This document shows, in pieces, positions 8,987 to 41,411 of a stretch of DNA of 64,000 bases. The position numbers and the translations under genes were made by a program. The stretch covers positions 25,255 through 89,254 of the forward strand of contig CAYJVR010000004.1 in the NCBI GenBank assembly GCA_964373715.1, read 5' to 3'. The stretch comes from an uncultured Planctomycetia bacterium (lineage in GTDB: Bacteria; Omnitrophota; Gorgyraeia; 1-14-0-20-64-10). The notes under the pieces were generated by a model. That model was not told where the DNA came from. It was given only the letters and a program-made list of their open reading frames with translations, and did no database searches. How positions within the stretch are numbered: position 1 is the first letter of the stretch; every line of letters begins with the position of its first letter.

Positions 8987-9526
8987 CTACTCCGGATGAA
9001 ACCCGATTCGCCGGCGCGGCCGCGTCGGCGGCGTCATCAGCTGCCGGATCGCATCAAAAACTATTTTGAATCGAGCGTCGTATTTCTGCTCCAAGGCCTC
9101 TAGCCTTCGGGCTAAATCTTTGTGAGCAGTAAGTATCTCTCGAAGCTTCACGAAGGCACGCATGATTGCGATGTTAACCAACACCGCCCGTTTGCTGTGG
9201 AGCACGCTGGAAAGCATGGCTATTCCCTCTTGGGTAAAGACGTAGGGGAGATGCCCTCCCAGGTGCTTCCTGGAAGGTATCGCATTTTGCGATACCACAA
9301 TTTCCACTTCGTTCTCCGTAAGCTGAAACATAAAATCTGCGGGGAACCGTTCGATGTTCCTTTTCACCTGCTCCCTCAATCGGATCGCTTTAACTCCGTA
9401 AAGCTCCGCCAGGTCGGAATCCAGCATTACCTTATGCCCCCGAATAAAGAGGATGCGGCACTGCACACGCTCCACTGCGGGATTCTTGTGACGAGGTCTG
9501 GTAGTCATTCGGCAGTTAGAATACAC
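8987..9526 (-). CDS. ORF6N (KilA-N-like) domain DNA-binding protein
   Basis: IRGHKVMLDSDLAELYGVKAIRLREQVKRNIERFPADFMFQLTENE is the classic ORF6N signature. The alternative start MTTRPRHK at 9508 is possible. Confidence 0.7.
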   Translation of the reverse strand: MYSNCRMTTRPRHKNPAVERVQCRILFIRGHKVMLDSDLAELYGVKAIRLREQVKRNIERFPADFMFQLTENEVEIVVSQNAIPSRKHLGGHLPYVFTQEGIAMLSSVLHSKRAVLVNIAIMRAFVKLREILTAHKDLARRLEALEQKYDARFKIVFDAIRQLMTPPTRPRRRIGFHPE

Positions 9527-9618: not shown

Positions 9619-12600
9619 TTACGCGAAGATGGCGAAGTAATCCTCGCCCTCGATCGTCACCCGCTCGATCGTTCCTCTTGTCAGATCGAGAATGAGGTTA
9701 ACGAGGGCGTCGGGCCGGGCCAGAAACGCCGCCAGCGCGGCCCGGTCAATAAGGTGATAAGTGCTTGGCGACAGGAACAGGGCGACCGGGTGGTTTTCGG
9801 GCAGGCGCACCCCCTGCCCGAAATCAGGATTGAGCGCTATCACCACCTGCTTCCCATCGGCAAAATCATCGGTGGCCTCCTCGAGGAGCGCATTGGCCTC
9901 ATCCGTGTTCTGCTCTGAAACAGCCAGCGTACGGCCGATTGGCCACCCTTCCGGCAAAATCGCCATTGCACCGGAAACGACCGACAAATGGGCGTAAAGA
10001 TCCACGGAGCCAGGCCTCAGTTGGGCGGGAACCGTCTTTGCGGGAACCAAAATCGCCTGCGTGTACCCTTCGGCCTGGGCCGCCGCGGCCAATTCCACGC
10101 CTCTCCTGCCCAGCTCTTCCAGCGTCAAAACCCGGACCCACGGCTCCTCCAGACCCCCGGTAAGGCCGGTAATCAATCCGGCCACAATCGGCAGTATCTG
10201 TTCGAGCCGGGCCGGAGCCGCCTGTTCGGTGGCAATCTGCAGATGCCCTTCTCCTGTAACACGGAACCGGACCCGCGCAAAAACCTGGACATCCGGAGCC
10301 ATGGCGATATTGTGATAAAACGGTGACCATTCCTGCGCAGGCGGCAAAACACGGATGAGCTCTGCCAGCGCCGGGCGGTTCCACCGTCCCGACTCCAGCA
10401 CGGCAACCAAATGACCCTCCATGAATCTCCTCTGCGGCTTGGCGATAATGAACCCTCCCTCATCCACCACCTGGGCCGGTTGGGACCGGTTCCAGCTCTC
10501 AGGCCTTACCATGTCGCTGCGCCCAAGCCGGATGCCCCGCGTCGGATCCATGAATAGGGGAACTACGGACTGTTCATTCCCGTTGAGAAATTCCATGGTG
10601 TTCGGGGCATCGGCCCGAATGACCGAATCCTCCACCGTCTCCATAATTTCCTGGAACAGAGGCTGACCGGACTGCTCAAGCGGGGTCGGAGTCCGGGAGT
10701 TCTGGAATTCATCCTGCTCTCCGCCAAAGGCCGCGAAATTTTCCTGGGGGGCAAAACGGATATTGGCCGCAACCGCGCCGAGCATCTGAACCGTCTCCGC
10801 TTCCGCCTGGTCCCTCAGGCTGGGACGCACGCGGACCCCGGTCCGGCCGGCAATCTCCGCGCGTATGGCTTCGCCCGCCGTTCCGGAGCGAAGCCTTTCC
10901 CGGCGGGCTTCGAGCCGGCCTATCAGCGCGCCGGCTCGCTGGCCGACCAGCGGCAAATCATTCTGTTCCGTAAATTCCAAAAGAGGCAGAGCCACACCGA
11001 TGGAATCCATATCGTCGGCTAAAAGTTCCAGTCCCCGCACCGCCGCCTCCCGGACACTCACAGACGGTTCACCCCATACGTCGTCCGCGGTCCGGCCGGA
11101 AGGGTTCTGCCTCGTCATCAGCTCTCCGAAAAGATTTATAATCTGATTCCTCAGCGCCCTGTTCTCCCCGTAATCCAGCCTCGCCAGTCCCTCCACGGCC
11201 CGGGCGCGCGCGTTCAGCGGGCCCCTTTCTTCCAGCGTCAGCCAGCGTACAAAATAAGCCGCCAGCTCGCCCGCCGCGGCCGGAAACTTTTCCACGTAGA
11301 CCTCCGGGTTCGAGTAGGGCCACCGGCTGATCTCCACCGCGTCCCTGTCGGCCAAACGGCGGATAACAATATCGTTGAACGAAGCGAAATGCCCCGGCCC
11401 GTCACGAAGAGAGGTCTCCCGGCCGAGCACCTGCCCGTTTTCGGAAGAAACCTCCTCTACGAGGACCTCCCACCCCCTTTCAAGAGAGGGCACAGAAAGA
11501 CGGACGAACGTGCCGGGATTTCCCCGGTTGACAATCCGCAGCCCCATTCCCCATCTGGCCAAAAGCTCGAGAGGAACCACCACCGGGTTATCTGCCCGGA
11601 AAAAGAGTCTCTGCTCGAATTGGTCCCTCAGCTGCAGAGAAACGACATCCTTCGTGCTGCGGACCATCTCCTCGTAGAGGGTTTCTTCCAACCCGGCCGG
11701 GGGAATATCCAGCATGCTGATTACATTCGTGGCCCGCCCGACGGCCAGCTTGCCACCGTTCGGGCTGAAGGCCAAACTGAGGATCGAGTGGGGTCCCTTC
11801 ACCGTCCCCCGCGCTTCGCCCGCGTAGACATCCCAGAGATTCAAAACCCCGTCTCTTCCTCCGGTCGCCAGGAGATTCCCATCCGGGTTAAAAGCCAAAG
11901 CCAGGATCTCCTTGCCCGCCTTGTGCTGAAACTCATTCACAAAGAGGCCGGCCCTGTTCCACACACGGACAAATCCTTTGCTGTCGCCCGAGACAACCAG
12001 GGATCCGTCCGGGCTGAAGAGAACCACTGTGACGCCCCCTGCGTGTCCCCTTAAAACACGGAATCTTGTCGCCTCTTCGGAGAACCGATCGCTGACATCC
12101 CGCAGTTCGACGGTCCCCCTGCTTGTCCCGATCAAAGCGATGTTCCCGTCCGGGCTGTAGGCAACGCTTAATGGGAGGCCCTCCTCCGGCTTAAAACGTT
12201 TCACGATCCCCTCCCTGCCGGCATAATCAGCAGCCGCTTCCGGAGCCAGATTTTGGATGAGGGCCTCTTTCCTCAACCCGCCGACCAAAAGGAATTTCCG
12301 GTCCGGAGAAAAAGCGGTGCTGCCCGGATAGGGGGGGGTCTCCGGAAAGAGCGACGACCTGAATTCGATCCGCCCGATCGGATAGGCGTGGAACCAATCA
12401 TGCCGGACAGCGCTGGTGGAGTTGACCGACAGAACGGCCGACCCGGTGGAGGAAAATGCGACCTTTAAAACTCCTGCTTGCTGAATCAGTTTGCCATGGC
12501 CGCCCCTCGTCTCCCAGCTCCAAATCCGGACGGTTCCGTCATCGCTTGCGGAAACAAGCGTCTTACTCTTCGGCGCGGCGTTGAACGCGAGGCTTGTGAC

Positions 12601-13956
12601 CGCTCCGCGGTGGCCGGTGAAACCCTGTTTATTAAATTGATCCTCAACGGGAACTTTTTCTTCAAGCCCTCCCGCGAAATACGGGGCCATCTGCTGGATC
12701 TGCCAGAGAGGGTAAGCCGGGTCATCCAGCTTCATGACCTGGGCCAAGTTTCCGGCTATCTGGTTGAACCGCCCCGACAAGTTTGTGAATCTTATCTCGT
12801 TGCTGACCGGAACATTCGGAATAGCCGCCCGGATGATTTGGCCGGCCAGCTGAGCTCCGACTGCGGCGAGATTCCCTTCGGCGGCAAGCTGCTGCTGTTT
12901 CCGGGAACGGTCCACGGAGCGGGCGGCTTGAAGAAGGGCGTCCGGGACAGGTTCCGAAACAGCGGCCAGGGTTTGGGCCAACGCAGAGGCCAAAGCCTCT
13001 TCACTGAGAACCGGCGGAATTACCGCCGCAGAAAGCCGTTGGCTGTCTTGATACCAGATCAGAAGTTGCGCGTACTTCACCAAAGCAGCGTCCGTCAAAC
13101 GATACGGCCCCGGAGCGGCAAATAGGGAAAAAGCCGCCAGCCGGTGAACCGGCGTTTCTTTCTGCATCAACCGCGCCAATCGCTCTTCATCCCCGCTTTC
13201 GGAAAAATCTCTCGCCTGGTCAATGAATTCGGCAAGCTGGGTTTCGACAGGCTCGATCCGCACAAGACCTCCGAGCCGCAGACCTTCTCCGACGATCTGC
13301 AATACCTCAAGAATGCCGATCTCCTCATCCCGTACGCGGGTTGGATCGTCATTGTCCTGGAGCGGCACCATATTCACCGCTGTCTGCTCGTTGATCCCCC
13401 CCAGCCCGGCGCCCGCCAACGTGGAGCTGGCCTGAAAAGAGAGCCTCATCTGCGCCGCCAACCAGGCCTGCAGCAGAAGAAAATTTGCCCTGCCCTGGTC
13501 CAAAGGGCTGTCGCTCCCGGAAGAGGCTGTCATCACACGCCGGGAAGCCACGGGAAAACGGAAGTGTCCATTAAGAAAGAGGGCCAATTGAAGCGCCGTG
13601 GCGGTATTTAAACTGTATCGCTCTTCCAGTAAATTCACAACACGCTGAATCTGGAAAGGCTCGTCATTGGCCGGCACGCCATCCCCCGGGGTCCTTTCCT
13701 CTACTTCTTCCAACCCGGCCCCTAACCCGGCCAAGACTCCCCGGTCAAACCCCGCGACCCCGGCAAGTTTGTTTAACGTACCCTCTAATTTGGTGGCGCT
13801 TCGGCCGGTGAGCGCTTGCTCAAGGCCGGCAAGAACATCGGGAACTTCAGCGGGGGTTTCGTTTCGGAGCGCAACTGCGTGGCCAGGCAAGCTGAGCACC
13901 GCAGTCAAAAGCAGGGCTATCGTTTGTGTAAAAAACGCGTGTGGTCTCATGGTCAA
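9619..13956 (-). CDS. 1445-aa protein with N-terminal hydrophobic leader, WD40 beta-propeller repeats and a conserved about 190-aa C-terminal module shared with the adjacent 2365-aa protein
   Basis: N-terminus MTMRPHAFFTQTIALLLTAVLSLPGHAVALRNE. WD40-like repeats (SASDDGTVRIWSWE, VSGDSKGFVRVWN, LATGGRDGVLNLWDV, AYSPDGNIALIGTSRGTV). C-terminus ...GGLEEPWVRVLTLEELGRRGVELAAAAQAEGYTQAILVP...LILDLTRGTIERVTIEGEDYFAIFA. Confidence 0.75.
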   Translation of the reverse strand: MTMRPHAFFTQTIALLLTAVLSLPGHAVALRNETPAEVPDVLAGLEQALTGRSATKLEGTLNKLAGVAGFDRGVLAGLGAGLEEVEERTPGDGVPANDEPFQIQRVVNLLEERYSLNTATALQLALFLNGHFRFPVASRRVMTASSGSDSPLDQGRANFLLLQAWLAAQMRLSFQASSTLAGAGLGGINEQTAVNMVPLQDNDDPTRVRDEEIGILEVLQIVGEGLRLGGLVRIEPVETQLAEFIDQARDFSESGDEERLARLMQKETPVHRLAAFSLFAAPGPYRLTDAALVKYAQLLIWYQDSQRLSAAVIPPVLSEEALASALAQTLAAVSEPVPDALLQAARSVDRSRKQQQLAAEGNLAAVGAQLAGQIIRAAIPNVPVSNEIRFTNLSGRFNQIAGNLAQVMKLDDPAYPLWQIQQMAPYFAGGLEEKVPVEDQFNKQGFTGHRGAVTSLAFNAAPKSKTLVSASDDGTVRIWSWETRGGHGKLIQQAGVLKVAFSSTGSAVLSVNSTSAVRHDWFHAYPIGRIEFRSSLFPETPPYPGSTAFSPDRKFLLVGGLRKEALIQNLAPEAAADYAGREGIVKRFKPEEGLPLSVAYSPDGNIALIGTSRGTVELRDVSDRFSEEATRFRVLRGHAGGVTVVLFSPDGSLVVSGDSKGFVRVWNRAGLFVNEFQHKAGKEILALAFNPDGNLLATGGRDGVLNLWDVYAGEARGTVKGPHSILSLAFSPNGGKLAVGRATNVISMLDIPPAGLEETLYEEMVRSTKDVVSLQLRDQFEQRLFFRADNPVVVPLELLARWGMGLRIVNRGNPGTFVRLSVPSLERGWEVLVEEVSSENGQVLGRETSLRDGPGHFASFNDIVIRRLADRDAVEISRWPYSNPEVYVEKFPAAAGELAAYFVRWLTLEERGPLNARARAVEGLARLDYGENRALRNQIINLFGELMTRQNPSGRTADDVWGEPSVSVREAAVRGLELLADDMDSIGVALPLLEFTEQNDLPLVGQRAGALIGRLEARRERLRSGTAGEAIRAEIAGRTGVRVRPSLRDQAEAETVQMLGAVAANIRFAPQENFAAFGGEQDEFQNSRTPTPLEQSGQPLFQEIMETVEDSVIRADAPNTMEFLNGNEQSVVPLFMDPTRGIRLGRSDMVRPESWNRSQPAQVVDEGGFIIAKPQRRFMEGHLVAVLESGRWNRPALAELIRVLPPAQEWSPFYHNIAMAPDVQVFARVRFRVTGEGHLQIATEQAAPARLEQILPIVAGLITGLTGGLEEPWVRVLTLEELGRRGVELAAAAQAEGYTQAILVPAKTVPAQLRPGSVDLYAHLSVVSGAMAILPEGWPIGRTLAVSEQNTDEANALLEEATDDFADGKQVVIALNPDFGQGVRLPENHPVALFLSPSTYHLIDRAALAAFLARPDALVNLILDLTRGTIERVTIEGEDYFAIFA

Positions 13957-14048
13957 TTTAATGCCTACACCATGAAGGTTACCTGAGACCGTGGAGGAAA
14001 AGAAGAGGGGCTAGGCTTGTATCACGTTAACCACCAAATAGTTAGTGG

Positions 14049-17000
14049 TTATGCAAAGATAGCAAAATAATCTTCCCCGTCGATCGTCACCCGTTCGATC
14101 GTCCCGCGAGTCAAATCGAGGATCAGATTTCTTAAAATCTGCGGTTGAGAAAGGAACGCTGCTAAAATCGTCCGGTCAATAAGATGATACGTCTTTTCTG
14201 ACAGGAGGAGCGCGACGGGATGGTTCTGCGGCAGCTGCAGGCCGGACTTTAAATCGGGGTCCAGCGCGATGACAACCTGCCGGCCCCTGGTAAATTCGTC
14301 GGTGGCTTTTCGCAGCAGATCATTTCCGGCAGAGGGATCGTTCTCCGGAATGGCAAGGATCTGTCCGATCCCCCACCCATCGGGCAGAATAGCCATCGCG
14401 GCGGAAGAAACGGAAGGCTGCGCGTAAAGATCCAATGTGGCCGATTCCATCCTGCTTAATACAGCTCCCACCGGAACCAAAACAGCTTGCGTGTATCCTT
14501 GAGCCCCAGCCTCTGCGGCCAATTCCACACCTTTCCTGCCCATCTTTTCAAGCGTCCAAACCCGGGCAGTGCTCTTTTCTTCCAAACCGGCTTTCGAAAA
14601 GGCATCCCGGATCTGAGCCGCTACCTCTTGGATGGACCCCCCCTGGACGGAAACCGGCAAACGAAAGATTATTTCGGAACCCTGCGCGCGCTCAACCGCT
14701 TGAATCGCGGGAGCTTCCCCCGCAGCGGTGTACAGATAACGGATCCTCCCCCCATCCGGCCCGGCCGTTTCCACCGTCAAGGAGCCGCCCGGGATATCCA
14801 TCACCGCTAGGTAGCTGGCGGAGAGGCCAATGCCCGCCTCCCCTTCGTCAAAACCGGTTTTTCGGGTCGATCCCGCCACTCGGACTGCGGTGTCGACCGG
14901 GATTTTCCACGGACCCGGGTTTTCATCCCGATAAGTCACGACGAGGGAACCGGTGGTTTTCCCCTCAGCGGAGACCACTCGCTCGATAGAAAACCGGAGC
15001 GCAGCCGACGGATGGCTTTCTTCCGGCACGTGTTCCAAAAGATTCTTCCCGAGCTCCTGAACCAAAAACATCAGCAGGGTTCCGCTCGTCCGGTTCTGCT
15101 CGTCATACGGCAGTCCCAGCACGGCAGCCGTCTCTGCCGCCAGCCGATTGACCGCCCGTTGGAAGAGTCCCGGATCGCTCAACTGGGCCGTCACTTCCCC
15201 AAGAACGGCGGTCTCCGGCTTCTCTTCCAAACCGGCGGGAATTCCCTTTAACCTGGAGAGGCTGAAGCTCGGTGTATCCGGTCCCCATCCGATAAGAATC
15301 ATTTTCCCTTCTTCAGTCCACCGGATGTTCAGGTCCAAAGTTTCCATGCGCACGAACTCGGAGAAACGGGGCGGCGGCCTCTGGGAACCGACGATCGTGA
15401 TCTTCTGGCCGGGCGCTGCGGAAAATCCTTCGGTCCGGACTTTGAAAAACTGTTCGTCCGGGACAACGATCTGGTCTTTGCCCGAAGGGATGACAAAAAA
15501 CCGTTGTTTGCCCGCCGCGGCGTTCACCTCGAGCAGGAACGTTGATCCGTCCCCCGCCGCCGGAACGGAAACGGGCGACACCTGCTGTTTGGAATCGGCG
15601 ATCTCCAGCGCCAGCACCTCGAACGAAACCCTCTCCATCTCCGCCAAACGGGCCACCCGGAAACGGGGCGTATCCGGACCCCAGGCGAACACCAGGCCGT
15701 TGTCCGGATCGTACCGGAAATTCATGTCGAGGGCTTCGATCCGGGCGGTTTTCGCGCCGACAGGCGGAGGCCGCCGGGGAAAACGGACCGGCATGACCCC
15801 GCCCCCTTCGAACCGGAAACCCTCCCGGGAAACTGTGATGTCGTCCTCGTCCAAAAGAACCGTATTGAGCCGGTCGTTGGCGCCGGTGAAGAAATATTTT
15901 TTGCCGGCCGGCGTATCGACCTCCACGAGAAAGATGTCGCCGGGCCTGACGTGGGGAACGATGACCGGCGAGATCTTCTGCGTCGAATCGGCCAATTCCA
16001 CGCCGAAAATCTCAAAAACTTTTTCATCGGGCTTTTCCGGCCTGCCGATCCCGAGTTCCGCCCGCACTTGCCGAACGAGACTGTCCCGCCGATAACGAAG
16101 CTCGAACGCTTGGCTCAAGACGGCAAGCGCCTCGGCCCCCCGCGCGTCGCTTATGGAAAGCAGAGCGTCGGCCCGCAGGGTCTCCAAGAGGATCATTTGT
16201 TGATAAGCCTCGTACCGGACCAGCCGGTCGGGGTTTTGCAAGGCGGTCTCGAAGGCCTTCTTCAATTCCTCATAAGAGCGCATGGCGGCTTCGTAAACCG
16301 GATCCGGAGACGAAGCCCGGGAGGGGTCGGGCTTGGGGGCGTCGCCGATCCGGACGCTCAGCCGGCGGGCGATCTGCCCTTCGGTAAAGTAGGCAAAACC
16401 GGCGGTTTTCTGAACGATCTGGGCCGAACCCGCCGGTGTCTCCGGAAGCAGACCCTGCCAATAAAGCTGCGCCCGTTCTTCCATAGCGCGGGTCAGATCG
16501 TTATAAAGGAACATCTCCGGCAAAGATCCGGCTTTCCGGATCTCTTCGATGGCGCGCTGGATCCGAATCTCCTTTATGCCCAGCAGAAAGACCGGCCCGC
16601 GCCGTTCCCAGCCGGGAGCCCATTGACCCGAGGGATGGATCTCCGCTTCGATCTGCTTTAAAACCACATCGATCAGGATCGACGGAGATTCTTCCCAGAC
16701 GGAAAGGAACGCCCGGATTGACTGGCCGGTCTCATCGCCGCAAATCCCTTCCAAAACAGCCGCCCGGGCTTGCCGAAGAGGAGGCGTATCGGCCAGGAAA
16801 ATGCCCCGGAGAAACCCCTGGACCTCCGGAGTATCGGAGAGCCAGAGCAGCGAACGGGTCAGAGAAACCCTCTGCTGGGCCGAGAAAGCCGGTGCCTGTT
16901 CAACAAGAAGATTCATCCTCTGGGCCGAATTGTTTTCCGGATCGAACAAACGGTTCAGGAGATTCCGCACCGCCGGGTCAATCTCCTCCGTACCTGCGCC

Positions 17001-20000
17001 GGCATTGTTTGGTTTATTTTCCGGCGGTTTCTCCGGATCGGCCGGAGGCTTTTCCGCGGCGATCTGCTGATCAATCGCCTGTTCGAGAAAAGCCATAAAA
17101 TCTTCTCCCTCGGCCTCGGCCGGAACAGCCGCCTTCTTTAACTCATCTTCCAATCCCAAAATAGCCGCAGCTCCACGCGGCTCTTCCTGGGACTCTTCAG
17201 AAACGGGTCCCTTCTGAACGGTCACCGGCAATCGAAACCGGAAAACCGATCCTGTCGTACCGGCGGCTCCCGCTTCCGCCTGGCTCACACTGCGCACCAA
17301 CTCGAGCACGCCGCTGCGCTTGGTCAATTCATTGCTCAAAGAGGACAGCCCGTATCCGGTCCCCTGCGTTCCGGCCGTTTCCGGCCGATCGAGCCGCTGA
17401 CCGTGTTGGAACAGCACCTCCTCGCGGCTTTTTTCCTCCCCCGCCACAGTGATCTTTGCAGGGATGCCGATGCCGTTGTCCTCGACGGTCACCTCCACCG
17501 TCCGATCCGCCGGAGAATAGACCGCCGTGACGGCAACCTCCAGCGCCTTATCTTGCCTCCGGTACTTCGAGGTGTTCTCCAAAAGCTCCACGAGAGTGGA
17601 GCGGATGAGCCTGGATTCCTCCGGGCTGACATACAGCACGCCCCCTCCTTGCGTCCACTGCAAACTGTCATAGCGGAGGGTAAACTGCCCCGCCCGGGAT
17701 TCGATCTCTTCCCGAAGAATAGATCCGACGTCAACGTGAATCTGTTCGGCAGGCTGCGAAATTTTTCCCAGGTCAACTTCGATTGTCGCGCCGATGTCGG
17801 CCAAAAATTGGTTCGCCTCCTGGACCACCCGGTCGACTCGGTCGGCCAGCTTCCGAACGTCTGCGGCAATTTCCTGGTCGCTTTCCTTCTCGGCAATCGC
17901 TCTGAGTTGGGACGCGAACTCCCTAACCCCCTTAAACCGGGCAATGAAGGTCTGCAGTTGCGGGATGAATTTCTGATTTTCATCGTCCCATTCCTCAACA
18001 GCGGCGATAGCGGAGGAGGCCAAAGCCTCCCAAGCGGCGAGAATTCTTTGCGCCTCCGGATTATCCTTCAATCCGGGATCATCCAAGTGGCGCCGGTAGA
18101 GGGCGCGAACCTCTTCCGGATCGAGATCGCGCACAGCCTCTAAAAAATCCAAAGAAACGCTGTGAAAAAGCTTGTCGAAAACCTCCAGGTTCTGCAGCGA
18201 GGGAGCTTTACGGGCCTGCGCGGGAGGCTCCTTTTTCACCGGCCTCTTTCCCGCCAGGCGCATCACAACCCGCGCTTCCTCGGCCCGCTCAATAATAAAC
18301 CGTTGGACCTCCTGCGCAAGAACGTACAGAACACCGGCCTCCGATTCAAAATCCATGGAAAAAAGCTCGGCCGACGCCGACACGCCGGCGAGTCTGTTCT
18401 TCAAGTCGTGGAGGATTCCGGTGATTCTTTGCCCTTCCTTTTCCAGGTTCATGGCATTCCGATATAACCGGTAATTCCGGACGTTCTGCCGCGCAAAGAG
18501 AGCCGCATTGCCGACGGTCTGCAGAATCCGGAGAACCTGCAGCCGGTAAGCTTCCGTTTCCGCTTCCGACTGTCCCGGGAATAAGGGTGCTCCGCTCTTC
18601 CAGTTATTCACCATGAGCAGCCCCCAGGGCCGGTGGTCAGCATCTCGAAGAACAACGTAGTAGACCGAGCGGACATTGTCGAGATTCCCGCCGGCGTATG
18701 TCTGCGCGTCTTTGGCCAAAAGCGTCTGATCAACGAAATCTGCCTTCTGCCTGTCCTCTACATAAAGATCATCCACACCGCTCTCAAGAGCCTTTTTCTT
18801 TTCATGAGTGGCGGGCGACCAAGAGGCGGCCGCCGACATTCCTTCCAGCGCCCTGATTTCGCTCAGGATTTGAAATTCGTTCGGCTTTTCCGATTGCCGG
18901 ACAAGATAGAGGACCGCGCCGCTGTACCCTAAAACCTCCCGGGCCGACCGGACGAACGGCTGCTCCACCGCGGTCTCATCCTGTGCGGCAAAAAAATCGT
19001 TCATGACACCCAGCAAGGACCCGAGTAAATCCGACGGCATAGATGTAGATATCGCTCCGCCAGGCGGCTTCGTCTCTTCCTCCATACCGGCTGTTTGAGG
19101 CGGCGGACCCTGGGGGGCTTCCAGCCGTTCCCGCAGCATTTCGACAACCTGGTCGTGGTAGCTGCGGACACCCGCATGAACCTGCAGCCTGCGGGCCTGC
19201 TCCAGGGCTTGGGCCACTTGCCGTTCCGAAGGACGGGATTCGCGCCACCAGCGGCGCACCTCGTCTCGCGTGTCGGTCGGGAAGATCTCCCGAATTCGCT
19301 TTTCCGCGGTCCGTTCGGCGGCATGGACCAGGATCGCCGGGATAAGCTCCATCGCGAGGGTATTCGGGTCCAACTCCCCCTTCTCATACCCTTCCTCGAT
19401 GACCCGCCGGACAGCCGTGACGGCTCTGCGCCGCGAAGAGAGGATCGCGTCCCGGGCCCGTTCGAATAATGCCGGAGAATCGGTGATCTCCCGAGCCATC
19501 TGCAGGTGCATCCTCTCTTCATGGATTAATGCGGGGGTAATCTGCCGGGCGTCCTCCCCATAAAGCTCCGACGCCCGGATCAGCACCACCCCCTGCGCAT
19601 CGATCGCCGCCTCGATCAGGTGGTCCAACTCGTATACCCCGTCGAGACCCAGGTACTGGCCCGCCGGAATACTCTCGAGCCGCCACCTTTTGCCGGTGGG
19701 ACTGCTGTCGAAATTCGAAACCGCATTGGGAAGCACCGCCATTCCCGCCGCCCGATCATCGGCTGATGAAGCGGTATCCAACAGGGAGAAGAGGGCATCG
19801 GCGACGACATAGATCGGGACATCAAGCGTCCCGGCAGAAACCTCCCGGAGCATCGGCTCCTGCTCCTCAAGACCGGCGCTGGCGGTTACCTCGAGCATCC
19901 GCTCGATCAACCCGGAAAAATCGCGCAGCGACAGCATCGTGGGGACCGGCTGCGGATTATTCCCTGTCTCGATGTCGGTCAGCAAAGCCGTCGCGCTGAC

Positions 20001-21146
20001 CGTCTGCGTGTTGTTGGTCCGCAGATAAGCGGCGAGCGCCGAAACCAGATCCGGCAGAGCCCGATGAGCCTCCAATGCCGTCGGATGAGCCAAGTAAGCG
20101 TTCTGGAGCTGGGCATCCAGCGGGATTCCCCTTTCCCCCATAATCACATAGAGAAAATCGTCGGCGGAAATCCCGGAACCGATCATCCCCAGCAGAGGAG
20201 CCTGATTCGTCAGGAACTCCTGGAGCGCGGCCGGGATCGCAGAGGCTGGATCCTCGTCGTCATCCTGGATCCTTTTCCGGAGACTCTTGCTGAGGAACCG
20301 GAGCTGAACGCGGAGCGTTTCGGGGCTTTCTTCAAACCCCGCGTTGCCGCGGCGGATCTTTTCGAGGATCATTTCCCCCACCTCGCCCCGGACCTCTCCG
20401 GCGTGCGCGAGGCATTCCCGTTCGAACCGGTCAATCGCCTGCTTCCCAAGCCTCGAATCAATCCTCACCAGCGCGGAGGCAACGCCGGTCAGCGCGTACG
20501 TGCTCCAGGCCAAGTGGGCGTCCAAAAGGGCGTCCCGTCTTTTCACCGAACGCTTGAACGTCTTCTCGCGCGCCTTGAGAGTCTCGATGCTCAGCACCGC
20601 CTGCAGCGCGGCAACGACTCTGTCTTTCTGCGGGACTTTTGCTCCAAGAGCTCCGAGAACCAGCGCGGCTCCGCGCGGATTTTTCCAGTTCGAGTGATCA
20701 TTCAACCGCTCCAAAAGGAAATCTATGGCCCCGTCTGAATCATTGGCGACAATCTTTCTCAGCGCACCGCGGGCTTCGTCCAGATACTCGACATCCAGCG
20801 ACAGGTTCTGAAAAACATCCGTCAGAACCGGCAGACCCTGGACCCCTTTGGCAACCAGCTTGCCGGCCGCCGCCTGCCGGGCCACAGCATCCTCGGTCAT
20901 GAAATCAATCCAGGCCGGTTCCTTCTCTTCCAACCCGGCAGAGGGGACCACCGTTCCCACAAGCCCCGTTATCCTGTCGGTTAAAACCCGGGTATTCACG
21001 GAAGTCAGCGCACGTTTAAGCTCCTGCTCGACATTTCCCTCGGCAGCCTCCTGCGGTTTCAAGGCATAGGCAGGGTTGGGCAACGCTAGCGCAAGCGATA
21101 GCAAAAGCCCTAAAATTCTATATAGAGGAAACGGTTGTAATCTCAT
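14049..21146 (-). CDS. 2365-aa multidomain protein: hydrophobic leader, helical region, GAF-like domain, histidine-kinase core (HisKA H-box plus HATPase_c), two tandem beta-rich repeats of about 190 aa, a degenerate second HATPase-like segment, and the shared C-terminal module
   Basis: H-box ITGILHDLKNRLAGVS. HATPase N-box LVELLENTSKY, G1 VEDNGIGIP and G2 GTGYGLS. Tandem repeat FE[IV]..[VL]E[IL]ADS.Q.[IV]SPV.VP...G..FL.EV...AGK..FF...GWGPDTP.F. Second degenerate ATPase-like block LVQELGKNLLEH...GEAGIGLSASYLAVMDIPGGSLTVET. C-terminus ...LILDLTRGTIERVTIDGEDYFAIFA. Confidence 0.75.
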   Translation of the reverse strand: MRLQPFPLYRILGLLLSLALALPNPAYALKPQEAAEGNVEQELKRALTSVNTRVLTDRITGLVGTVVPSAGLEEKEPAWIDFMTEDAVARQAAAGKLVAKGVQGLPVLTDVFQNLSLDVEYLDEARGALRKIVANDSDGAIDFLLERLNDHSNWKNPRGAALVLGALGAKVPQKDRVVAALQAVLSIETLKAREKTFKRSVKRRDALLDAHLAWSTYALTGVASALVRIDSRLGKQAIDRFERECLAHAGEVRGEVGEMILEKIRRGNAGFEESPETLRVQLRFLSKSLRKRIQDDDEDPASAIPAALQEFLTNQAPLLGMIGSGISADDFLYVIMGERGIPLDAQLQNAYLAHPTALEAHRALPDLVSALAAYLRTNNTQTVSATALLTDIETGNNPQPVPTMLSLRDFSGLIERMLEVTASAGLEEQEPMLREVSAGTLDVPIYVVADALFSLLDTASSADDRAAGMAVLPNAVSNFDSSPTGKRWRLESIPAGQYLGLDGVYELDHLIEAAIDAQGVVLIRASELYGEDARQITPALIHEERMHLQMAREITDSPALFERARDAILSSRRRAVTAVRRVIEEGYEKGELDPNTLAMELIPAILVHAAERTAEKRIREIFPTDTRDEVRRWWRESRPSERQVAQALEQARRLQVHAGVRSYHDQVVEMLRERLEAPQGPPPQTAGMEEETKPPGGAISTSMPSDLLGSLLGVMNDFFAAQDETAVEQPFVRSAREVLGYSGAVLYLVRQSEKPNEFQILSEIRALEGMSAAASWSPATHEKKKALESGVDDLYVEDRQKADFVDQTLLAKDAQTYAGGNLDNVRSVYYVVLRDADHRPWGLLMVNNWKSGAPLFPGQSEAETEAYRLQVLRILQTVGNAALFARQNVRNYRLYRNAMNLEKEGQRITGILHDLKNRLAGVSASAELFSMDFESEAGVLYVLAQEVQRFIIERAEEARVVMRLAGKRPVKKEPPAQARKAPSLQNLEVFDKLFHSVSLDFLEAVRDLDPEEVRALYRRHLDDPGLKDNPEAQRILAAWEALASSAIAAVEEWDDENQKFIPQLQTFIARFKGVREFASQLRAIAEKESDQEIAADVRKLADRVDRVVQEANQFLADIGATIEVDLGKISQPAEQIHVDVGSILREEIESRAGQFTLRYDSLQWTQGGGVLYVSPEESRLIRSTLVELLENTSKYRRQDKALEVAVTAVYSPADRTVEVTVEDNGIGIPAKITVAGEEKSREEVLFQHGQRLDRPETAGTQGTGYGLSSLSNELTKRSGVLELVRSVSQAEAGAAGTTGSVFRFRLPVTVQKGPVSEESQEEPRGAAAILGLEDELKKAAVPAEAEGEDFMAFLEQAIDQQIAAEKPPADPEKPPENKPNNAGAGTEEIDPAVRNLLNRLFDPENNSAQRMNLLVEQAPAFSAQQRVSLTRSLLWLSDTPEVQGFLRGIFLADTPPLRQARAAVLEGICGDETGQSIRAFLSVWEESPSILIDVVLKQIEAEIHPSGQWAPGWERRGPVFLLGIKEIRIQRAIEEIRKAGSLPEMFLYNDLTRAMEERAQLYWQGLLPETPAGSAQIVQKTAGFAYFTEGQIARRLSVRIGDAPKPDPSRASSPDPVYEAAMRSYEELKKAFETALQNPDRLVRYEAYQQMILLETLRADALLSISDARGAEALAVLSQAFELRYRRDSLVRQVRAELGIGRPEKPDEKVFEIFGVELADSTQKISPVIVPHVRPGDIFLVEVDTPAGKKYFFTGANDRLNTVLLDEDDITVSREGFRFEGGGVMPVRFPRRPPPVGAKTARIEALDMNFRYDPDNGLVFAWGPDTPRFRVARLAEMERVSFEVLALEIADSKQQVSPVSVPAAGDGSTFLLEVNAAAGKQRFFVIPSGKDQIVVPDEQFFKVRTEGFSAAPGQKITIVGSQRPPPRFSEFVRMETLDLNIRWTEEGKMILIGWGPDTPSFSLSRLKGIPAGLEEKPETAVLGEVTAQLSDPGLFQRAVNRLAAETAAVLGLPYDEQNRTSGTLLMFLVQELGKNLLEHVPEESHPSAALRFSIERVVSAEGKTTGSLVVTYRDENPGPWKIPVDTAVRVAGSTRKTGFDEGEAGIGLSASYLAVMDIPGGSLTVETAGPDGGRIRYLYTAAGEAPAIQAVERAQGSEIIFRLPVSVQGGSIQEVAAQIRDAFSKAGLEEKSTARVWTLEKMGRKGVELAAEAGAQGYTQAVLVPVGAVLSRMESATLDLYAQPSVSSAAMAILPDGWGIGQILAIPENDPSAGNDLLRKATDEFTRGRQVVIALDPDLKSGLQLPQNHPVALLLSEKTYHLIDRTILAAFLSQPQILRNLILDLTRGTIERVTIDGEDYFAIFA

Positions 21147-21216
21147 CTTTTTTAACGACAGTGGTTACGAAAGGTTAACTGGATATAAGTTTACCCTGCA
21201 TAATGGTTTATTTCAA

Positions 21217-21316: not shown

Positions 21317-22120
21317 ATGTATCCGATAAAAACTAAAAAAACTCTGATGACGCACTTCCTGATCATCCTGCTTATGAGCGGCTGCTCCACAAGCTATAAC
21401 GTCGCCACCGACAGGACCGAATCCCTTGTCCTGAGCCCGGAAAAAGAGTTCCAACTCGGCGAAGCCGCTGCGAAACGGATAGAAGAGGAGTTTGATCTTA
21501 TCCGAGATCCTGCACTCTTGGAACGGCTGGACCGGGTGGGAGAAAAAATAGCGGCTGCTTCCGACAGAACGGATGTCATCTACCGGTTCAACATCGTGGA
21601 CATAAAAGAGAACGGCGTCAGCCAACCCAACGCGTTCGCGCTACCCGGAGGTCCCGTTTATGTGACGGTAGGCCTGCTGGACTTGCTGAAAACGGACGAC
21701 CAGCTCGCCGCGGTATTGGGCCACGAGATCGGCCATGTGGTGGCGCGGCACGCCGCCAAAAGGCTTCAAGGGGCCATCGGCCTCCAACTGCTGCAGGCTT
21801 TAGCCATAGGCAGCGGCTCAACGAAAACTGTCAGACAGAGACAGAACCTGGAGTTGGCTTTAGTTTCCCTGTTGTCTGAGTATTCCCAACAGGATGAGTT
21901 GGAAGCCGATCGGCTGAGTGTGCGGTATCTCAAAAGAGCCGGCTACAACCCGAACGCTGCCCTTGAAGCCCTCACGGCTCTCCGTGAGCATCTTCACAAG
22001 CAGCCTGCCCGGCGATTTTCTTATTTCCGGACCCATCCCTATTTCACCGATCGGCTTCGTATTGTCCGGCAGGAAGCGACCGGGCAGATCGGTTTCGACG
22101 ACTACGTCAACACCCGGTAA
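21317..22120 (+). CDS. M48 family zinc metallopeptidase, lipoprotein
   Basis: HExxH motif LGHEIGHVVARHA. N-terminal lipobox ILLMSGCS. Resembles YcaL/BepA-type periplasmic M48 peptidases. Confidence 0.8.
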   Translation: MYPIKTKKTLMTHFLIILLMSGCSTSYNVATDRTESLVLSPEKEFQLGEAAAKRIEEEFDLIRDPALLERLDRVGEKIAAASDRTDVIYRFNIVDIKENGVSQPNAFALPGGPVYVTVGLLDLLKTDDQLAAVLGHEIGHVVARHAAKRLQGAIGLQLLQALAIGSGSTKTVRQRQNLELALVSLLSEYSQQDELEADRLSVRYLKRAGYNPNAALEALTALREHLHKQPARRFSYFRTHPYFTDRLRIVRQEATGQIGFDDYVNTR

Positions 22121-24466: not shown

Positions 24467-26044
24467 CTAATGTCTGAAGTGACGTTCTCCGGTGAGCAAC
24501 ATCGGAATCTTCGCTTTTTCGGCGATTTTGATCACCTCCGGATCCTGCACCGAACCTCCCGGCTGAACAATCGCCTTAACACCGGCTTTTACGGCGAACT
24601 GAGGCCCATCCGGTTTCGGAAAGAAACCATCGCTGGCTAAAACAGCTCCCTTGGAACGGGCTCCGGCTTTCTTTAAAGCAATCTTTACGCTGTCCACACG
24701 ACTCATCTGTCCGGCTCCGATACCGACAACCTGCTCATCCTTCACGAGAACAATCGCGTTCGACCGGACAAACCTCGAGACTGTCCAGGCAAAAGCCAGA
24801 TCTCGCCGTTGGGCTGCCGTCGGTTTCACACGGGTCGCTGTGCGCCACTGAGAAGGTTTGACAATCATCCTGTCCGGCTGCTGAACGAGAAGGCCGCTTG
24901 TCACCTGCTTGATGTCCAAACACCCGGAGGGAGGCCGAGTCGAAGAGAGCGGCGCTTCAATCAACCGAAGGTTTTTCTTTCTCTTAAGGATATTGAGCGC
25001 TTCCGCCGAGTAGCCCGGAGCCACGACGCACTCCATAAAACCAGCCTTAATAATCGCCTTGGCGGCCGCTTTATCCACCGTCCGGTTTAAGCCCACAATA
25101 CCGCCGAAGGCAGAAAGAGAATCCCCGGCAAATGCCCGTTCAAAAGCCTTGGCCAATGTCGGAGCACAGGCAGCACCGCACGGATTGGTGTGTTTGATCA
25201 CCGTCGCGGCCGGTTTTTCAAAAGCGGCGGCCACCTCCAAAGCAGCACTCAAATCCAACAGATTGTTGAACGACAGCTCTTTCCCGTGGAGCTGCTTCAA
25301 ATTCCCGCAGCCGTTTGAACCGCTTGCCGCGGAAGGCCACTGGTACCAGCTTCCTCGCTGGTGAGGATTCTCCCCATAGCGGAGGATCTGCCTCCTTGAA
25401 ACGGCTAAAACAAGATGGTCCGGCCACCGCGAATCCCCTTTGGCGTGGCGCGAGAGTCCCTGGCAGATCACGCTGTCATAGTAAGCAGTCTCCGAAAAAG
25501 CGACAACGGCCAGCTTCAGTCGAGTTTCTTCCGACAGGCACCCCCCTTGGCGCCGCAACTCCTCTAGAACCGCCGGATACTGGGAAGGGCACGAAATGAC
25601 ACCGACCGACTCGAAATTCTTAGCGGCGGAACGGATAAGGGCAACCCCTCCAATATCGATTTGTTCGATCAGCTCACGCAGCTTCACCCCTTTCTGCCGC
25701 GTTGTCTCTTCGAACGGGTAAAGATTCACAATGACAAGGTCTATCAGCTTCAGCCCGAGCCTCTTGACCTGTTGAAGATGCCCTTTGTCATGGCGCTTGG
25801 CCAAGATTCCGCCGTGCACTTTAGGGTGAAGCGTCTTGACGCGGCCTGCTAAAATTTCGGGAAACCCCGTAAAATCAGATATCTCCTGGACCGGTATTCC
25901 CCCTTCCTGCAAAAGTTTCGCCGTTCCTCCGGTTGAGATGACCTGAATCCCCATCTCTCTCAAACCGCGGATAAACGGAACAAGATCTCTCTTATCCGAC
26001 ACCGAAACAAGCGCCCTTTTTATTTGGACTCTCTTGGGGCTCAT
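24467..26044 (-). CDS. purH: bifunctional AICAR transformylase / IMP cyclohydrolase
   Basis: 525 aa. N-terminal MGS-like domain ALVSVSDKRDLVPFIRGLREMGIQVISTGGTAKLL and C-terminal AICARFT domain. Confidence 0.9.
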   Translation of the reverse strand: MSPKRVQIKRALVSVSDKRDLVPFIRGLREMGIQVISTGGTAKLLQEGGIPVQEISDFTGFPEILAGRVKTLHPKVHGGILAKRHDKGHLQQVKRLGLKLIDLVIVNLYPFEETTRQKGVKLRELIEQIDIGGVALIRSAAKNFESVGVISCPSQYPAVLEELRRQGGCLSEETRLKLAVVAFSETAYYDSVICQGLSRHAKGDSRWPDHLVLAVSRRQILRYGENPHQRGSWYQWPSAASGSNGCGNLKQLHGKELSFNNLLDLSAALEVAAAFEKPAATVIKHTNPCGAACAPTLAKAFERAFAGDSLSAFGGIVGLNRTVDKAAAKAIIKAGFMECVVAPGYSAEALNILKRKKNLRLIEAPLSSTRPPSGCLDIKQVTSGLLVQQPDRMIVKPSQWRTATRVKPTAAQRRDLAFAWTVSRFVRSNAIVLVKDEQVVGIGAGQMSRVDSVKIALKKAGARSKGAVLASDGFFPKPDGPQFAVKAGVKAIVQPGGSVQDPEVIKIAEKAKIPMLLTGERHFRH

Positions 26045-26685
26045 TTTCTTTTGGATCCCTTCTGTTTCGCCTGCGACTGAAGGATTTTTTTCGCTTCAGG
26101 AGTGGCTATGAACTCCAACCCGATTTTCGCCTTGCGCCGGACGTTCGAATCCGGATCATTCAAGAAGGGGGCAATTACAGGAACCGCTTTCTCAGGCTCA
26201 AGAACCTTGCAAACCGCCTCGATAACAAAACCCCGGACGACTGCTTTCGGATCATTGAGCCTCTCCACAAGGAAGGAAGCGGCCTTTCCTGAGGCTTTCC
26301 CGAATTTGCCGAGCGTCTCCGCAGTCTTGAGCCGGATAAGATATTCTTCGTCTTTTAAGAGAAAAATCAAGATAGCCACCGCCTCTTCGGACGGAACGCC
26401 AATCTCCCCGAGAGCGTCAATACTGTTTTGCCGGACGCGCGAATCTTTGTCTTTCAGAGCTTTCACAAGCAAAGGAACGGCCTCTTTCGCGTCAGGGCCA
26501 AGCCTGGTGAGAGAAACCGCGGCCTCGCGCCTGAGCTCAACATCGGATGACTGCAGATCCTGCACAGCCTCTTTAACCTTCTGCGCATTTTCAGGTTTCT
26601 TCTCATCCGCCCACAAGAAGCCGGGCCGGAAAACAACCAGAGAAAAAAAGAAAACAATGGCCGAGAAACTAACGAATCGTCGCAT
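26041..26685 (-). CDS. secreted HEAT / PBS-lyase-like repeat protein
   Basis: N-terminal signal peptide, then repeated ...VR..A..ALG.IG... HEAT-like units. ATGA overlap with purH. Confidence 0.6.
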   Translation of the reverse strand: MRRFVSFSAIVFFFSLVVFRPGFLWADEKKPENAQKVKEAVQDLQSSDVELRREAAVSLTRLGPDAKEAVPLLVKALKDKDSRVRQNSIDALGEIGVPSEEAVAILIFLLKDEEYLIRLKTAETLGKFGKASGKAASFLVERLNDPKAVVRGFVIEAVCKVLEPEKAVPVIAPFLNDPDSNVRRKAKIGLEFIATPEAKKILQSQAKQKGSKRK

Positions 26686-27427
26686 TCTTCCCCCTCAGTT
26701 TTGACATTAACCGGCGGGTGACGGGACCAGGCACAATCTCCCCAATCCGGCGGCCGTCCACCTCACGGATAGGGAGAAGCCTCATCAAAACGTTGGTAAG
26801 AAAAGCCTCATCCGCGTTAAACAGGTCATGGCGCGTTACCGGAACCTCTTTCACCGGGATCTTCAGACGCCGGGCCGCCTGAAGGACCTTCTTTCTCGTG
26901 ATCCCTTCCAAAACGCCGACCCATGCCGGCGGCGTAAAAAGCGTTCCCTCTTTCACAAAAAAGAAGTTGGAAACCGTCCCCTCGGTAAGGAGACCGTGGG
27001 AACCAAGCCGAAGGACATCAAACGCCTCTCCCCCCTCGCAGCGGGCAAGAATGCTGGAAAGCCTTTCCGAATGTTTCGACAGAGACCGCGCCGTTTCCCC
27101 GGACGGCCAGCGAGTCGGAACTGTCCTGAGCCGGACCCCCCACTTCTGAAGCGCAGGCGTGTAACGGGTCCGCGCAGAAGCGTGCAAAACCGTTCTTCTC
27201 TCGCCGTACCGGTTGACCGTAACACGAACATAACCGCTGCCGATCCGCCGGGCCTCTCTGCGGATTTCGGCCGCCAAATTATCTTGTCCGTAAAAATCAA
27301 CGGCCAACGCATGAAGAGATTCGTTGATCCGTTGAATATGTTCCCTCAGATTCACCGGCCGGCCGTTTTCCACCCGGATCGTTTCAAAACAACCGGAGGA
27401 ATCAAACAGCTCAGGAACTGGACGCAT
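26669..27427 (-). CDS. pabC: class IV aminotransferase fold protein, probable aminodeoxychorismate lyase
   Basis: 252 aa with fold-type IV PLP-enzyme features (...EAFLTNVLMRLLPIREVDG...). Overlaps pabB by 17 nt. Confidence 0.65.
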   Translation of the reverse strand: MRPVPELFDSSGCFETIRVENGRPVNLREHIQRINESLHALAVDFYGQDNLAAEIRREARRIGSGYVRVTVNRYGERRTVLHASARTRYTPALQKWGVRLRTVPTRWPSGETARSLSKHSERLSSILARCEGGEAFDVLRLGSHGLLTEGTVSNFFFVKEGTLFTPPAWVGVLEGITRKKVLQAARRLKIPVKEVPVTRHDLFNADEAFLTNVLMRLLPIREVDGRRIGEIVPGPVTRRLMSKLRGKNATIR

Positions 27428-28904: not shown

Positions 28905-28921
28905 AAAGACTATTTTATCAC

Positions 28922-28971
28922 GCGGCGGTGTCGTTAGAAAATGGAAGCGGCCTTAAACTGGATCTCCAGCC
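28922..28971 (-). terminator. rho-independent terminator downstream of kamA (minus strand)
   Basis: 11-bp perfect stem aagcggcctta / taaggccgctt with a 16-nt loop. On the minus strand it is followed by ccattttct. Confidence 0.5.
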
Positions 28972-28996
28972 TAAGGCCGCTTTACTTACAAGTTAC

Positions 28997-29056
28997 GACC
29001 GCCGAGGGACCGCGAAGCGGTCCGAGGAAGTAGTTGAGCGTTCCTTACGCTCAGAC
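28997..29056. repeat. about 60-nt structured stem-loop element, copy 1 (abuts kamA stop codon)
   Basis: gaccgccgagg-GGACCGC-gaa-GCGGTCC-g-AGGAA-gtagttgagcg-TTCCT-tacgctcagac: two hairpins. About 85% identical to 33457..33517. Confidence 0.5.
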
Positions 29057-30285: not shown

Positions 30286-30297
30286 GGTCTTCCTCCT

Positions 30298-32519: not shown

Positions 32520-32820
32520 CGCGTCCCCCGGCGAACAAAAAGAGGAGCTCCCTCACACAGGTCGCCCCCCTTCAAACGTGCGATTGTATTCAATTGTGAG
32601 GGTCTGACTACCTCCTCTTCACTTTATCCGAAAACTTAGTGATCGGTCTGCTGATCAAACTCTTGCACCCCAGGCCGAACATCAAAGCAAAACCAATTCA
32701 TCGAAAAGATATTCTTAAGAAAAAATAACATGAGTGTCTGACGTTGTCAAGTTCGAACGAAGAAAAATTTATTCCCGCCGACGGAAATGATTACAATAGG
32801 AACTTCGAGAAGGAGGTTCT

Positions 32821-34540: not shown

Positions 34541-34555
34541 GTGAGCCCTCTTTTA

Positions 34556-35182: not shown

Positions 35183-35194
35183 TAAAATTCCTCC

Positions 35195-35377: not shown

Positions 35378-35414
35378 CCCGCCACCCCGCTACTTTTTCG
35401 ACCAAGTGGTGGGA

Positions 35415-36740: not shown

Positions 36741-36768
36741 AGTTTACTCCTTGAGAGTCTCCCTCACC

Positions 36769-38013: not shown

Positions 38014-38018
38014 CAGGT

Positions 38019-39581: not shown

Positions 39582-39596
39582 TGTGTGTGTGTCGCC

Positions 39597-41336: not shown

Positions 41337-41411
41337 ATTTATAGTCCGATCAAAAAGAACTTAGATGCGACATGCGCGCAACAAAGCAGATCAGCCTTTT
41401 TCATCGGACAC

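Follow-up and report, generated by a model that had tools for sequence, protein, structure and literature searches.

The window analysed here is a stretch of 64,000 nucleotides of contig CAYJVR010000004.1, and all positions below refer to it. Three genes on its (-) strand encode proteins with a common leader and a common motif: gene A (14049..21146, stop codon 14049..14051), gene B (9619..13956) and gene C (1..3190), the last of which runs off the left end of the window. Gene A is an open reading frame (ORF) of 2365 amino acids (aa), which an original prediction had picked out as a histidine kinase behind an apparent signal peptide; both the ORF list and the translation bear out the frame. Most of that prediction's observations hold, with corrections to the size and identity of its repeats and to the strength of its H-box, and its interpretation is supported in part. 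It encodes an N-terminal leader, five copies of a short motif, [AG]G[LM]EE, four cargo modules with a histidine kinase among them, and a C-terminal tail domain that recurs in gene B. Here 'cargo' refers to the modules strung between leader and tail, and 'AGLEE' to the motif in all its variants.

From the N terminus of gene A, all on the (-) strand, the leader occupies aa 1-28 (MRLQPFPLYRILGLLLSLALALPNPAYA followed by LK; 21063..21146) and AGLEE motif 1 aa 70-74 (20925..20939). Cargo module 1, which is helical (aa 75-421; 19884..20924), is followed by AGLEE motif 2 (aa 424-428; 19863..19877), cargo module 2 (aa 429-683; 19098..19862) and motif 3, which reads AGMEE (aa 686-690; 19077..19091). 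Cargo module 3 is the kinase module (aa 691-1968; 15243..19076), after which comes AGLEE motif 4 (aa 1971-1975; 15222..15236). Cargo module 4 is a degenerate GHKL/HATPase-like block (aa 1976-2183; 14598..15221). Finally, AGLEE motif 5 (aa 2186-2190; 14577..14591) directly precedes the α/β tail domain (aa 2191-2365; 14052..14576), which ends in ...DYFAIFA. When the whole protein was run against Pfam, HATPase_c alone was matched.

The public NCBI call of gene A (P0001, 2351 aa) begins 14 codons inside the ATG at 21146. This ATG is the better start because aa 1-74 align from residue 1, at 43% identity, with a 2031-aa protein at the syntenic locus of a relative. The P0001 start strips the positively charged n-region off the leader (21105..21146 (-)). 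A sigma-70-like promoter match, by consensus only, lies upstream of gene A, some 40 nt from its start (21188..21216 (-)).

Gene A could be suspected of being an artefact, that is, a chimeric assembly, a pseudogene or a chance ORF. In a word-indexed search of 5.8 billion sequences, its full-length protein matched only P0001, which is gene A itself, and this lack of any other full-length homologue is all that speaks for the suspicion. On the other hand, the frame stays open for 7.1 kb without interruption, an identical copy of the protein is recorded on two contigs (NCBI and Logan), many independent metagenomic proteins share its leader, motifs and tail, and the locus is syntenic with that of the relative. 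An artefact is hardly conceivable.

Leader, motif and tail domain

In a 19-residue Kyte-Doolittle scan of gene A, only aa 11-29 rose above ~1.6 (1.73), the runner-up segment scoring 1.51. The leader had been described as the single hydrophobic segment, and the scan indeed shows no further transmembrane (TM) candidate. Its n-region is MRLQPFPLYR (+2), its h-region ILGLLLSLALAL and its c-region PNPAYA↓L, where the arrow marks the predicted cut; a rule-based check fits it to the rules for Sec and signal peptidase I. The reading LALALPNPAYA↓LK is that of the logo from the leaders of 36 family members, P(-6)-x-P(-4)-A(-3)-[FYL](-2)-A(-1)↓L/F(+1)-R/K(+2).

In the 36 leaders, the n-region charge is mostly +1 to +4, the uncharged stretch is 13-19 residues long, and small residues stand at -3 and -1. 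The stretch after the leader has a net charge of zero or below in most members, and the first GLEE often falls inside it. With positive charge in the n-region and an acidic stretch behind the hydrophobic core, most of the protein is predicted to lie outside by the positive-inside rule.

The leader is probably a cleavable Sec-type signal that takes the protein out of the cytoplasm. It had earlier been preferred as an anchor, but its pattern is that of a cleavable signal: a positive n-region, 13-19 uncharged residues, prolines at -6 and -4, and an acidic stretch following A-x-A. Nor was a topology found that would keep the kinase in the cytoplasm, whether by TM helices or by the lack of a leader; the lone hydrophobic segment is the leader itself, with the polarity of a signal peptide.

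Other exported proteins of the window carry ordinary leaders, namely a lipobox in an M48 protein and AWA↓E in the product of ORF 6088..6963, and therefore the PxPAFA↓LR type of leader is specific to the family. No model in Pfam or NCBIfam covers the leader or the tail. The predicted cut would leave Leu-Arg, Phe-Arg or Leu-Lys at the mature N terminus in 36/36 leaders, resembling a bacterial ClpS N-degron.

The AGLEE motif occurs five times in gene A, four times in gene B and at least twice in gene C. Besides these 11 in-frame motifs in three ORFs, just one more is present anywhere in the six frames of the window. In 59 family proteins, GLEE was observed 120 times with 2.3 expected; nine permutations of its letters were at expectation (1-4 each), LEEG alone being raised (27). 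The extended logo reads P(-3)-[A/S/T](-2)-[A/T/G/S](-1)-G-[L/M]-E-E, in which the G and both E are invariant and the sole variation is L/M. The motif codons vary synonymously, which places the constraint on the protein. A repeat or recombination site at the DNA level was considered as well, and it is ruled out by this synonymous variation.

The motif is set in Pro/Ala-rich linkers at module borders, and in none of 12 hand-checked cases does it fall inside a Pfam domain envelope. Motifs bracket the WD40 propeller of gene B at a distance of ≤4 residues on each side, and they likewise flank the degenerate GHKL block of gene A. In ~150 kb of related loci, motif clusters are confined to leader-bearing ORFs, with single copies elsewhere. 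In the AlphaFold2 (AF2) model of the tail, the 10-residue block containing AGLEE has a mean pLDDT (predicted local distance difference test) of 64, compared with 94 for the domain, and thus the block behaves as a linker. Library-wide literature searches for the motif returned nothing relevant.

If the motif were cut as G↓L-E-E and the leader as A↓L-R, both cuts would follow a small residue at -1 and often a small one at -3, a likeness that is suggestive only. Tentatively, we take AGLEE for a processing site; that it is a docking site seems rather unlikely.

The tail domains of genes A and B are 63% identical over 180 aa, in agreement with the shared C-terminal module of the original prediction. 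A profile of the module was run against 1.84 billion representative proteins in an exhaustive HMMER search, in which 62 clusters were found, 44 of them at E<=1e-10; 3 of the 62 are repeat-protein false positives. Gene A is matched at E 7.5e-101. The match sits at the C terminus in all genuine hits, and tails across the family end in ...[F/Y]A[I/V/L]FA or ...YALDIAA.

At 50% identity, the family comprises ~57 clusters among the 1.84 billion representatives, with proteins of ~200 to >2000 aa. Nearly all complete members have the leader and several GLEE motifs, and their architecture is leader, variable cargo string and tail, with a motif before the tail too. We are confident that the leader-AGLEE-tail architecture and its motif define a protein family. 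This family is undescribed and rare, and gene A is best read as one of its members.

With a 40-sequence alignment, AF2 modelled the tail at a pLDDT of 94.2 and a pTM (predicted template modelling score) of 0.89, as a three-layer α/β domain with a C-terminal β-hairpin extension. No conserved Cys is found in the tail alignment. With no invariant polar residue in the alignment, the tail suggests a module for binding, sorting or assembly and not an enzyme. A protease, in particular, was considered and is not supported, for the same reason and because fold searches gave no match to proteases.

The recognised cargo of the family includes GGDEF, GNAT, PP2C, TPR, REC, KDPG aldolase, PfkB sugar kinase, Ser/Thr kinase, PP-binding/ACP-like, WD40, HATPase_c and GH77 (with GT5) modules. 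All of it comes from domain families that are normally cytoplasmic. As for distribution, a scan of species-representative genomes with an 8-sequence profile gave two family contigs, the only ones with an organism name, both from groundwater metagenome-assembled genomes of Candidatus Omnitrophota, and a metagenome scan gave only 3 loci. The lineage of the window is inferred from such homologues. PADLOC, with its models of anti-phage defence systems, matched neither gene A nor the tail domain, and gene B only by a generic WD/HEAT-ARM hit, so that no membership in a known defence system was found.

Each family protein contains exactly one tail domain and several motifs. This arrangement would suit a cellulosome-like network outside the cell or in its envelope, in which the tail of one member binds the AGLEE of others and an enzyme mesh forms on the surface without any cleavage. 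The tail lacks catalytic-looking conserved residues and its three-layer α/β fold is a generic one often used for binding, as such a network would have it, and dockerin-type giant proteins have been reported in Omnitrophota (10.1101/2023.11.21.568195). However, the tail's own adjacent AGLEE does not dock in the AF2 model (pLDDT 64), and cargo that depends on cytoplasmic cofactors would still be stranded outside. We regard the network as quite improbable.

Kinase module and other cargo of gene A

The catalytic (CA) domain of the kinase, HATPase_c (PF02518), covers aa 1179-1309 (17220..17612 (-)) with a Pfam score of 56.7 bits (E 3.8e-15, cut-off 26.4). It had been called complete, and on alignment to HK853 (PDB 2c2a, 3dge) its boxes are all intact: N, ELLENTSKY (aa 1187); G1, DNGIGIP (1223); F, LFQHGQRLD (1245); and G2, GTGYGLS (1262).

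The HisKA H-box claimed along with it stands in part. HDLKNRL, with His913 as the candidate phospho-acceptor, is read directly in the sequence at aa 913-919 (18390..18410 (-)), but HisKA over aa 908-949 reaches only 13.4 bits (E 0.08), under the Pfam cut-off of 26.9. From His913 to the Asn of the N box there are 278 residues, compared with ~120 in HK853. An AF2 model of the kinase region was built without an alignment and has a pLDDT of 41.7, so it was used for secondary structure only. In this low-confidence model, the long helix predicted to contain HDLKNRL is followed by another one. Extra sequence of ~160 residues, including a basic linker and a further helical hairpin that lacks His, separates this H-box hairpin from the CA domain, as far as the AF2 secondary structure can indicate. 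Cargo module 3 would accordingly be ordered, partly by the model, as an N-terminal region, the H-box helical hairpin, the ~160 aa of extra helices, the CA domain, a Pro/acidic linker, a helical region and two β-rich units. By eye, aa 691-905 had given a GAF-like impression, which was dropped for want of support in Pfam or in a PDB sequence search.

In line with the original statement that no receiver neighbours the kinase, a phmmer search with four REC probes (E<=1) found no REC-like sequence in any of the six frames of the window, and Pfam Response_reg matched neither gene A nor gene B. A partner may still be encoded elsewhere in the genome.

An H-box-like HDLKNRL together with an intact HATPase_c is what a conventional sensor or hybrid histidine kinase would show, with its two-component partner encoded elsewhere. 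Such a role is very unlikely because neither the protein nor the 64-kb window has a receiver, a TM sensor topology is absent, the H-box spacing is atypical (278 aa to the N box, with HisKA sub-threshold), and the cargo is interchangeable. The kinase part amounts to ~420 of the 2365 residues of gene A, in a family whose other members carry unrelated cargo.

A second, degenerate ATPase-like block had also been proposed, and it is present at aa 2024-2165 within cargo module 4. Pfam HATPase_c scores it at 18.7 bits (E 0.0024), below the cut-off of 26.4. It keeps an N-box-like ELGKNLLEH and a G2-like GIGLS, while its G1 is degenerate (DENPGPW).

The tandem β-rich units are real but smaller and more divergent than originally given. 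They are 131 and 130 aa long (aa 1710-1840 and 1841-1970; 15237..16019 (-)) instead of ~190 aa, and 38% identical (49 identities in 129 columns of a global alignment) instead of ~45%. The local alignment scores 232, whereas shuffles average 28 (sd 4.7), which gives z = 43. They have no Pfam match and no relatives among the ~60 sampled family members.

Cargo modules 1 and 2 are both helical and unassigned. Module 1 is HEAT-like only weakly (Pfam HEAT_2, E 0.086, sub-threshold), and aa 320-430 are 32% identical to aa 773-878 of protein P0005. For module 2, Pfam gave only TetR_C matches, all sub-threshold. Apart from the degenerate GHKL block, no cargo module of gene A has a relative among the ~60 sampled family members or in the word-indexed search of 5.8 billion proteins.

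Genes B and C and cargo exchange at the locus

Gene B encodes a family member of 1445 aa, with the leader at 13870..13956, [AG]GLEE at aa 80-84, 429-433, 754-758 and 1267-1271, the WD40 propeller at aa 437-751 and the tail at 9622..10143, all on the (-) strand. In the ORF list it begins with a TTG at 13956; an ATG lying two codons further in (MRPHAFF...; 13950..13956) is the likelier start. Gene B had been called the WD40 paralogue of gene A. The relationship holds for the leader and the C-terminal domain, but the two are paralogous in nothing else. An orthologue of gene B on another contig (L001) is 87% identical, and the accession of that assembly belongs to the same series as one of the named Omnitrophota contigs.

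The gap between genes A and B measures 92 nt (13957..14048), the length given originally. Co-transcription is plausible because the gap has no terminator-like site. A kinase-scaffold pair had been suggested from the probable co-transcription, but the pairing is not conserved; the syntenic relative has the 2031-aa protein and a PP2C protein at the two positions, which have only the leader and the tail, respectively, in common with the genes of the window.

Gene C encodes at least 1063 aa from an ATG at 3190, with a leader, PGLEE at aa 91, a GH77 amylomaltase-like region and AGLEE at aa 1055. Over 1049 aa, gene C shares 74% identity with a GH77+GT5 protein of the syntenic relative. Two plus-strand ORFs, 347..1483 and 1685..3025, overlap gene C and are probably spurious.

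The relative is represented by a 624-kb contig (L005) syntenic with the window. Its order is PurH, FolC, MprF-TM and M48, the 2031-aa and 1235-aa proteins, others, ComM and SpoVG, others, and GH77+GT5; the flanking genes are 51-69% identical between the two. Gene A and the 2031-aa protein (3922-10017 on L005), on the other hand, have only the leader, aa 1-74, in common. In the place of gene B, the 1235-aa protein (P0004; 10001-13708) has PP2C instead of WD40, with a degenerate GHKL block and the tail behind it. Its aa 851-1235 are 39.5% identical to aa 1982-2365 of gene A over 384 aa. The flanks and gene C are conserved, gene A matches by its leader only, and PP2C stands for WD40; therefore, the locus is a hot spot at which cargo is exchanged while the leader stays the same and, in the second gene at least, so does the tail.

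The pairing of PP2C with a degenerate GHKL block in P0004 recalls partner switching of the RsbU/RsbW type. The 2031-aa protein has five AGLEE motifs and ends in ...HAVFA, 176 residues past the last of them. Its end may be a very divergent or a different tail; a divergent tail domain is not claimed here, as the tail profile does not detect it.

The genes nearby (ComM, ORF6N, M48 lipoprotein, MprF TM domain, FolC and PurH) are housekeeping genes. Upstream of gene A and divergent from it is the M48 metalloprotease gene (21317..22120 (+)), whose product has a lipoprotein-type leader (LMSGC), and the syntenic relative shows the same arrangement; the placement may be ordinary synteny or a functional link to processing. 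An ORF6N-domain gene lies between ComM and gene B (8987..9526 (-)). It is beside ComM in L001 too and is absent from the corresponding stretch of L005. ORF6N is an antirepressor-type domain, often found in phages.

Further along the window, 26000..62700 holds genes for tryptophan (anthranilate synthase), futalosine-menaquinone, UbiD, biotin, haem (GluTR), cytochromes b and c, two ATP-grasp proteins like D-Ala-D-Ala ligase, and a TldD/PmbA pair. With these biosynthesis and cytochrome genes, the genome is metabolically capable, and the organism is therefore not a minimal parasite.

Localisation, processing and known systems

That an ATP-dependent kinase should follow an export-type leader, and lack both a TM sensor and a receiver, had been noted as a paradox. 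The paradox is real, and it extends to the whole family. The original suggestion that the protein belongs in an unusual compartment or complex may yet apply. The likeliest reading, to which we give about an even chance, is that gene A belongs to a beads-on-a-string family exported by Sec, with AGLEE used afterwards for processing or docking. The leader would pass the chain through Sec and be cut at A↓L. The tail domain would then sort, anchor or assemble the protein outside the cytoplasm, and a dedicated factor would use the AGLEE sites, either for endoproteolysis that frees the modules or for docking. The kinase module would be cargo rather than the sensor of a conventional two-component pathway, and candidates for where it finds ATP are the cell envelope, another cell or an unusual compartment.

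Several points weigh against this. The recognised cargo needs cytoplasmic cofactors, namely ATP, acetyl-CoA, GTP and ADP-glucose. This dependence, together with the intact CA boxes and the housekeeping-like conservation of gene C, suggests that the proteins act where the cofactors are available. No protease or secretion gene consistently adjoins the family genes, whose contigs are short or whose neighbours are unrelated housekeeping genes. In fold searches, the tail domain showed no close solved fold and no resemblance to known sorting domains. In addition, AGLEE could be a structural linker cap or a docking site and not a cleavage site.

The same observations can be accommodated by a scaffold in the cytoplasm or on the inner face of the membrane, which is near the preference of the original prediction. 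In that case the leader would stay uncut or not translocate fully, the proteins would be membrane-tethered, and the AGLEE linkers and the tail would assemble a multi-enzyme complex, in which the kinase uses cytoplasmic ATP, possibly with the WD40 protein. The dependence of all recognisable cargo on cytoplasmic cofactors, the intact CA boxes of gene A and the 74% identity of gene C (GH77), a housekeeping-like conservation, would then be natural. Family genes lie among housekeeping genes and not in islands, the gap between genes A and B has no terminator-like site, and ~46% of long Omnitrophota proteins have been read as membrane-anchored with cytoplasmic domains (10.64898/2026.06.07.730766). 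However, the polarity of the leader, positive before and acidic after, puts the C-terminal bulk outside, and prolines at -6 and -4 with A-x-A at -3 to -1 are marks of a cleavable signal, not of an anchor. Moreover, the Kyte-Doolittle scan found no second TM segment that would return the chain inside, and the pairing of A with B is not kept in the syntenic relative. We therefore consider the scaffold unlikely.

A bolder version of export with AGLEE processing is that AGLEE is a dedicated post-export processing code, and that the tail routes the modules into a prey or host cell or into some compartment outside the cytoplasm that contains ATP. On this view, the effectors so delivered would be the histidine kinase, PP2C, GNAT, Ser/Thr kinase and sugar-metabolism modules. 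This is improbable on present evidence. If true, the AGLEE code might also mark the cleavage points of the giant Omnitrophota proteins of 10-150 thousand aa (kaa).

In practical terms, the 'secreted histidine kinase' is recast as one interchangeable cargo module, for which localisation and processing come before a search for partners. With the motif as a guide, family proteins can be divided into modules before their structures are predicted, and peptides to look for in metaproteomes are defined by it as well.

Compared with Thermotoga maritima HK853 (2c2a, 3dge), the kinase module of gene A has the same N, G1, F and G2 boxes and an H-box-like HDLKNRL in a helix predicted at low confidence. 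Unlike HK853, it has ~160 extra residues from the H-box hairpin to the CA domain, no TM or periplasmic sensor and no partner receiver, and it is embedded in a leader-AGLEE-tail protein.

Gingipains (Porphyromonas RgpA/Kgp) are exported by the type IX secretion system. They have a Sec signal and a removable C-terminal sorting domain, the precursor is cut at short sites, and the modules stay surface-associated. By analogy, the family here would share an N-terminal Sec-type signal, a conserved C-terminal domain and a multi-domain chain with short sites at the borders. The sorting domain of the type IX system is, however, a β-sandwich of ~80-100 aa, whereas the tail here is an α/β domain of 180 aa and does not qualify as one. 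Gingipains also cut themselves at Arg/Lys, whereas no protease was found for the family here. The family's cargo, moreover, is of cytoplasmic signalling and metabolic types.

In MARTX toxins, unrelated effector modules are joined in one chain and swapped between strains; once inside a target cell, which has the cofactors, they are released by cuts in short linker sites that contain Leu. Swappable unrelated modules in one chain are what the family would have in common with them, again by analogy. The secretion route of MARTX toxins is type I, by way of a C-terminal signal, and they have long glycine-rich repeats and their own cysteine protease domain. Such domains (cysteine protease, RTX repeats, type I signal) were not matched in genes A or B by Pfam, NCBIfam or PADLOC.

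In the cohesin-dockerin assemblies of cellulosomes, one small module is shared by many enzymes, with Pro-rich linkers between; the likeness would point to a multi-enzyme complex on the surface. The domains are not homologous to those here, where the common elements are a pentapeptide and an α/β tail; an assembly of this kind would be an analogy.

The Omnitrophota, a widespread group of uncultivated bacteria, may be predatory or dependent on hosts. In their long and giant proteins ('Archaeovorins' and relatives), HATPase_c, GNAT, starch synthase, REC, GGDEF and HEAT domains occur together with signal peptides or TM helices (West-Roberts et al. 2023, 10.1101/2023.11.21.568195; 10.64898/2026.06.07.730766). 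The topology paradox is treated as open in both papers, and in one of the two, cleavage is suspected with information on the cleavage points absent. Text searches found a punctuating motif, a linker or a polyprotein mentioned in neither; no such search was made for the leader or the tail domain.

The family described here and these giants have in common the phylum (judging by the named contigs), a domain repertoire behind a signal peptide, the paradox of cytoplasmic enzymes outside and a suspected cleavage. An N-terminal signal peptide is found in a sizeable fraction of the giants, as in the family. On the other hand, family proteins are 0.2-2.4 kaa long, compared with 10-150 kaa, and lack both internal TM helices and peptidase domains of the C39 or S8 type. 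Gene A, with 2365 aa and one hydrophobic segment, is far from a giant protein in the sense of >10-30 kaa and many TM helices. The family is a variant, much shorter and free of TM helices, of the Omnitrophota multi-enzyme proteins that carry signal peptides, and its motif, leader and tail are testable candidates for processing sites and a sorting signal.

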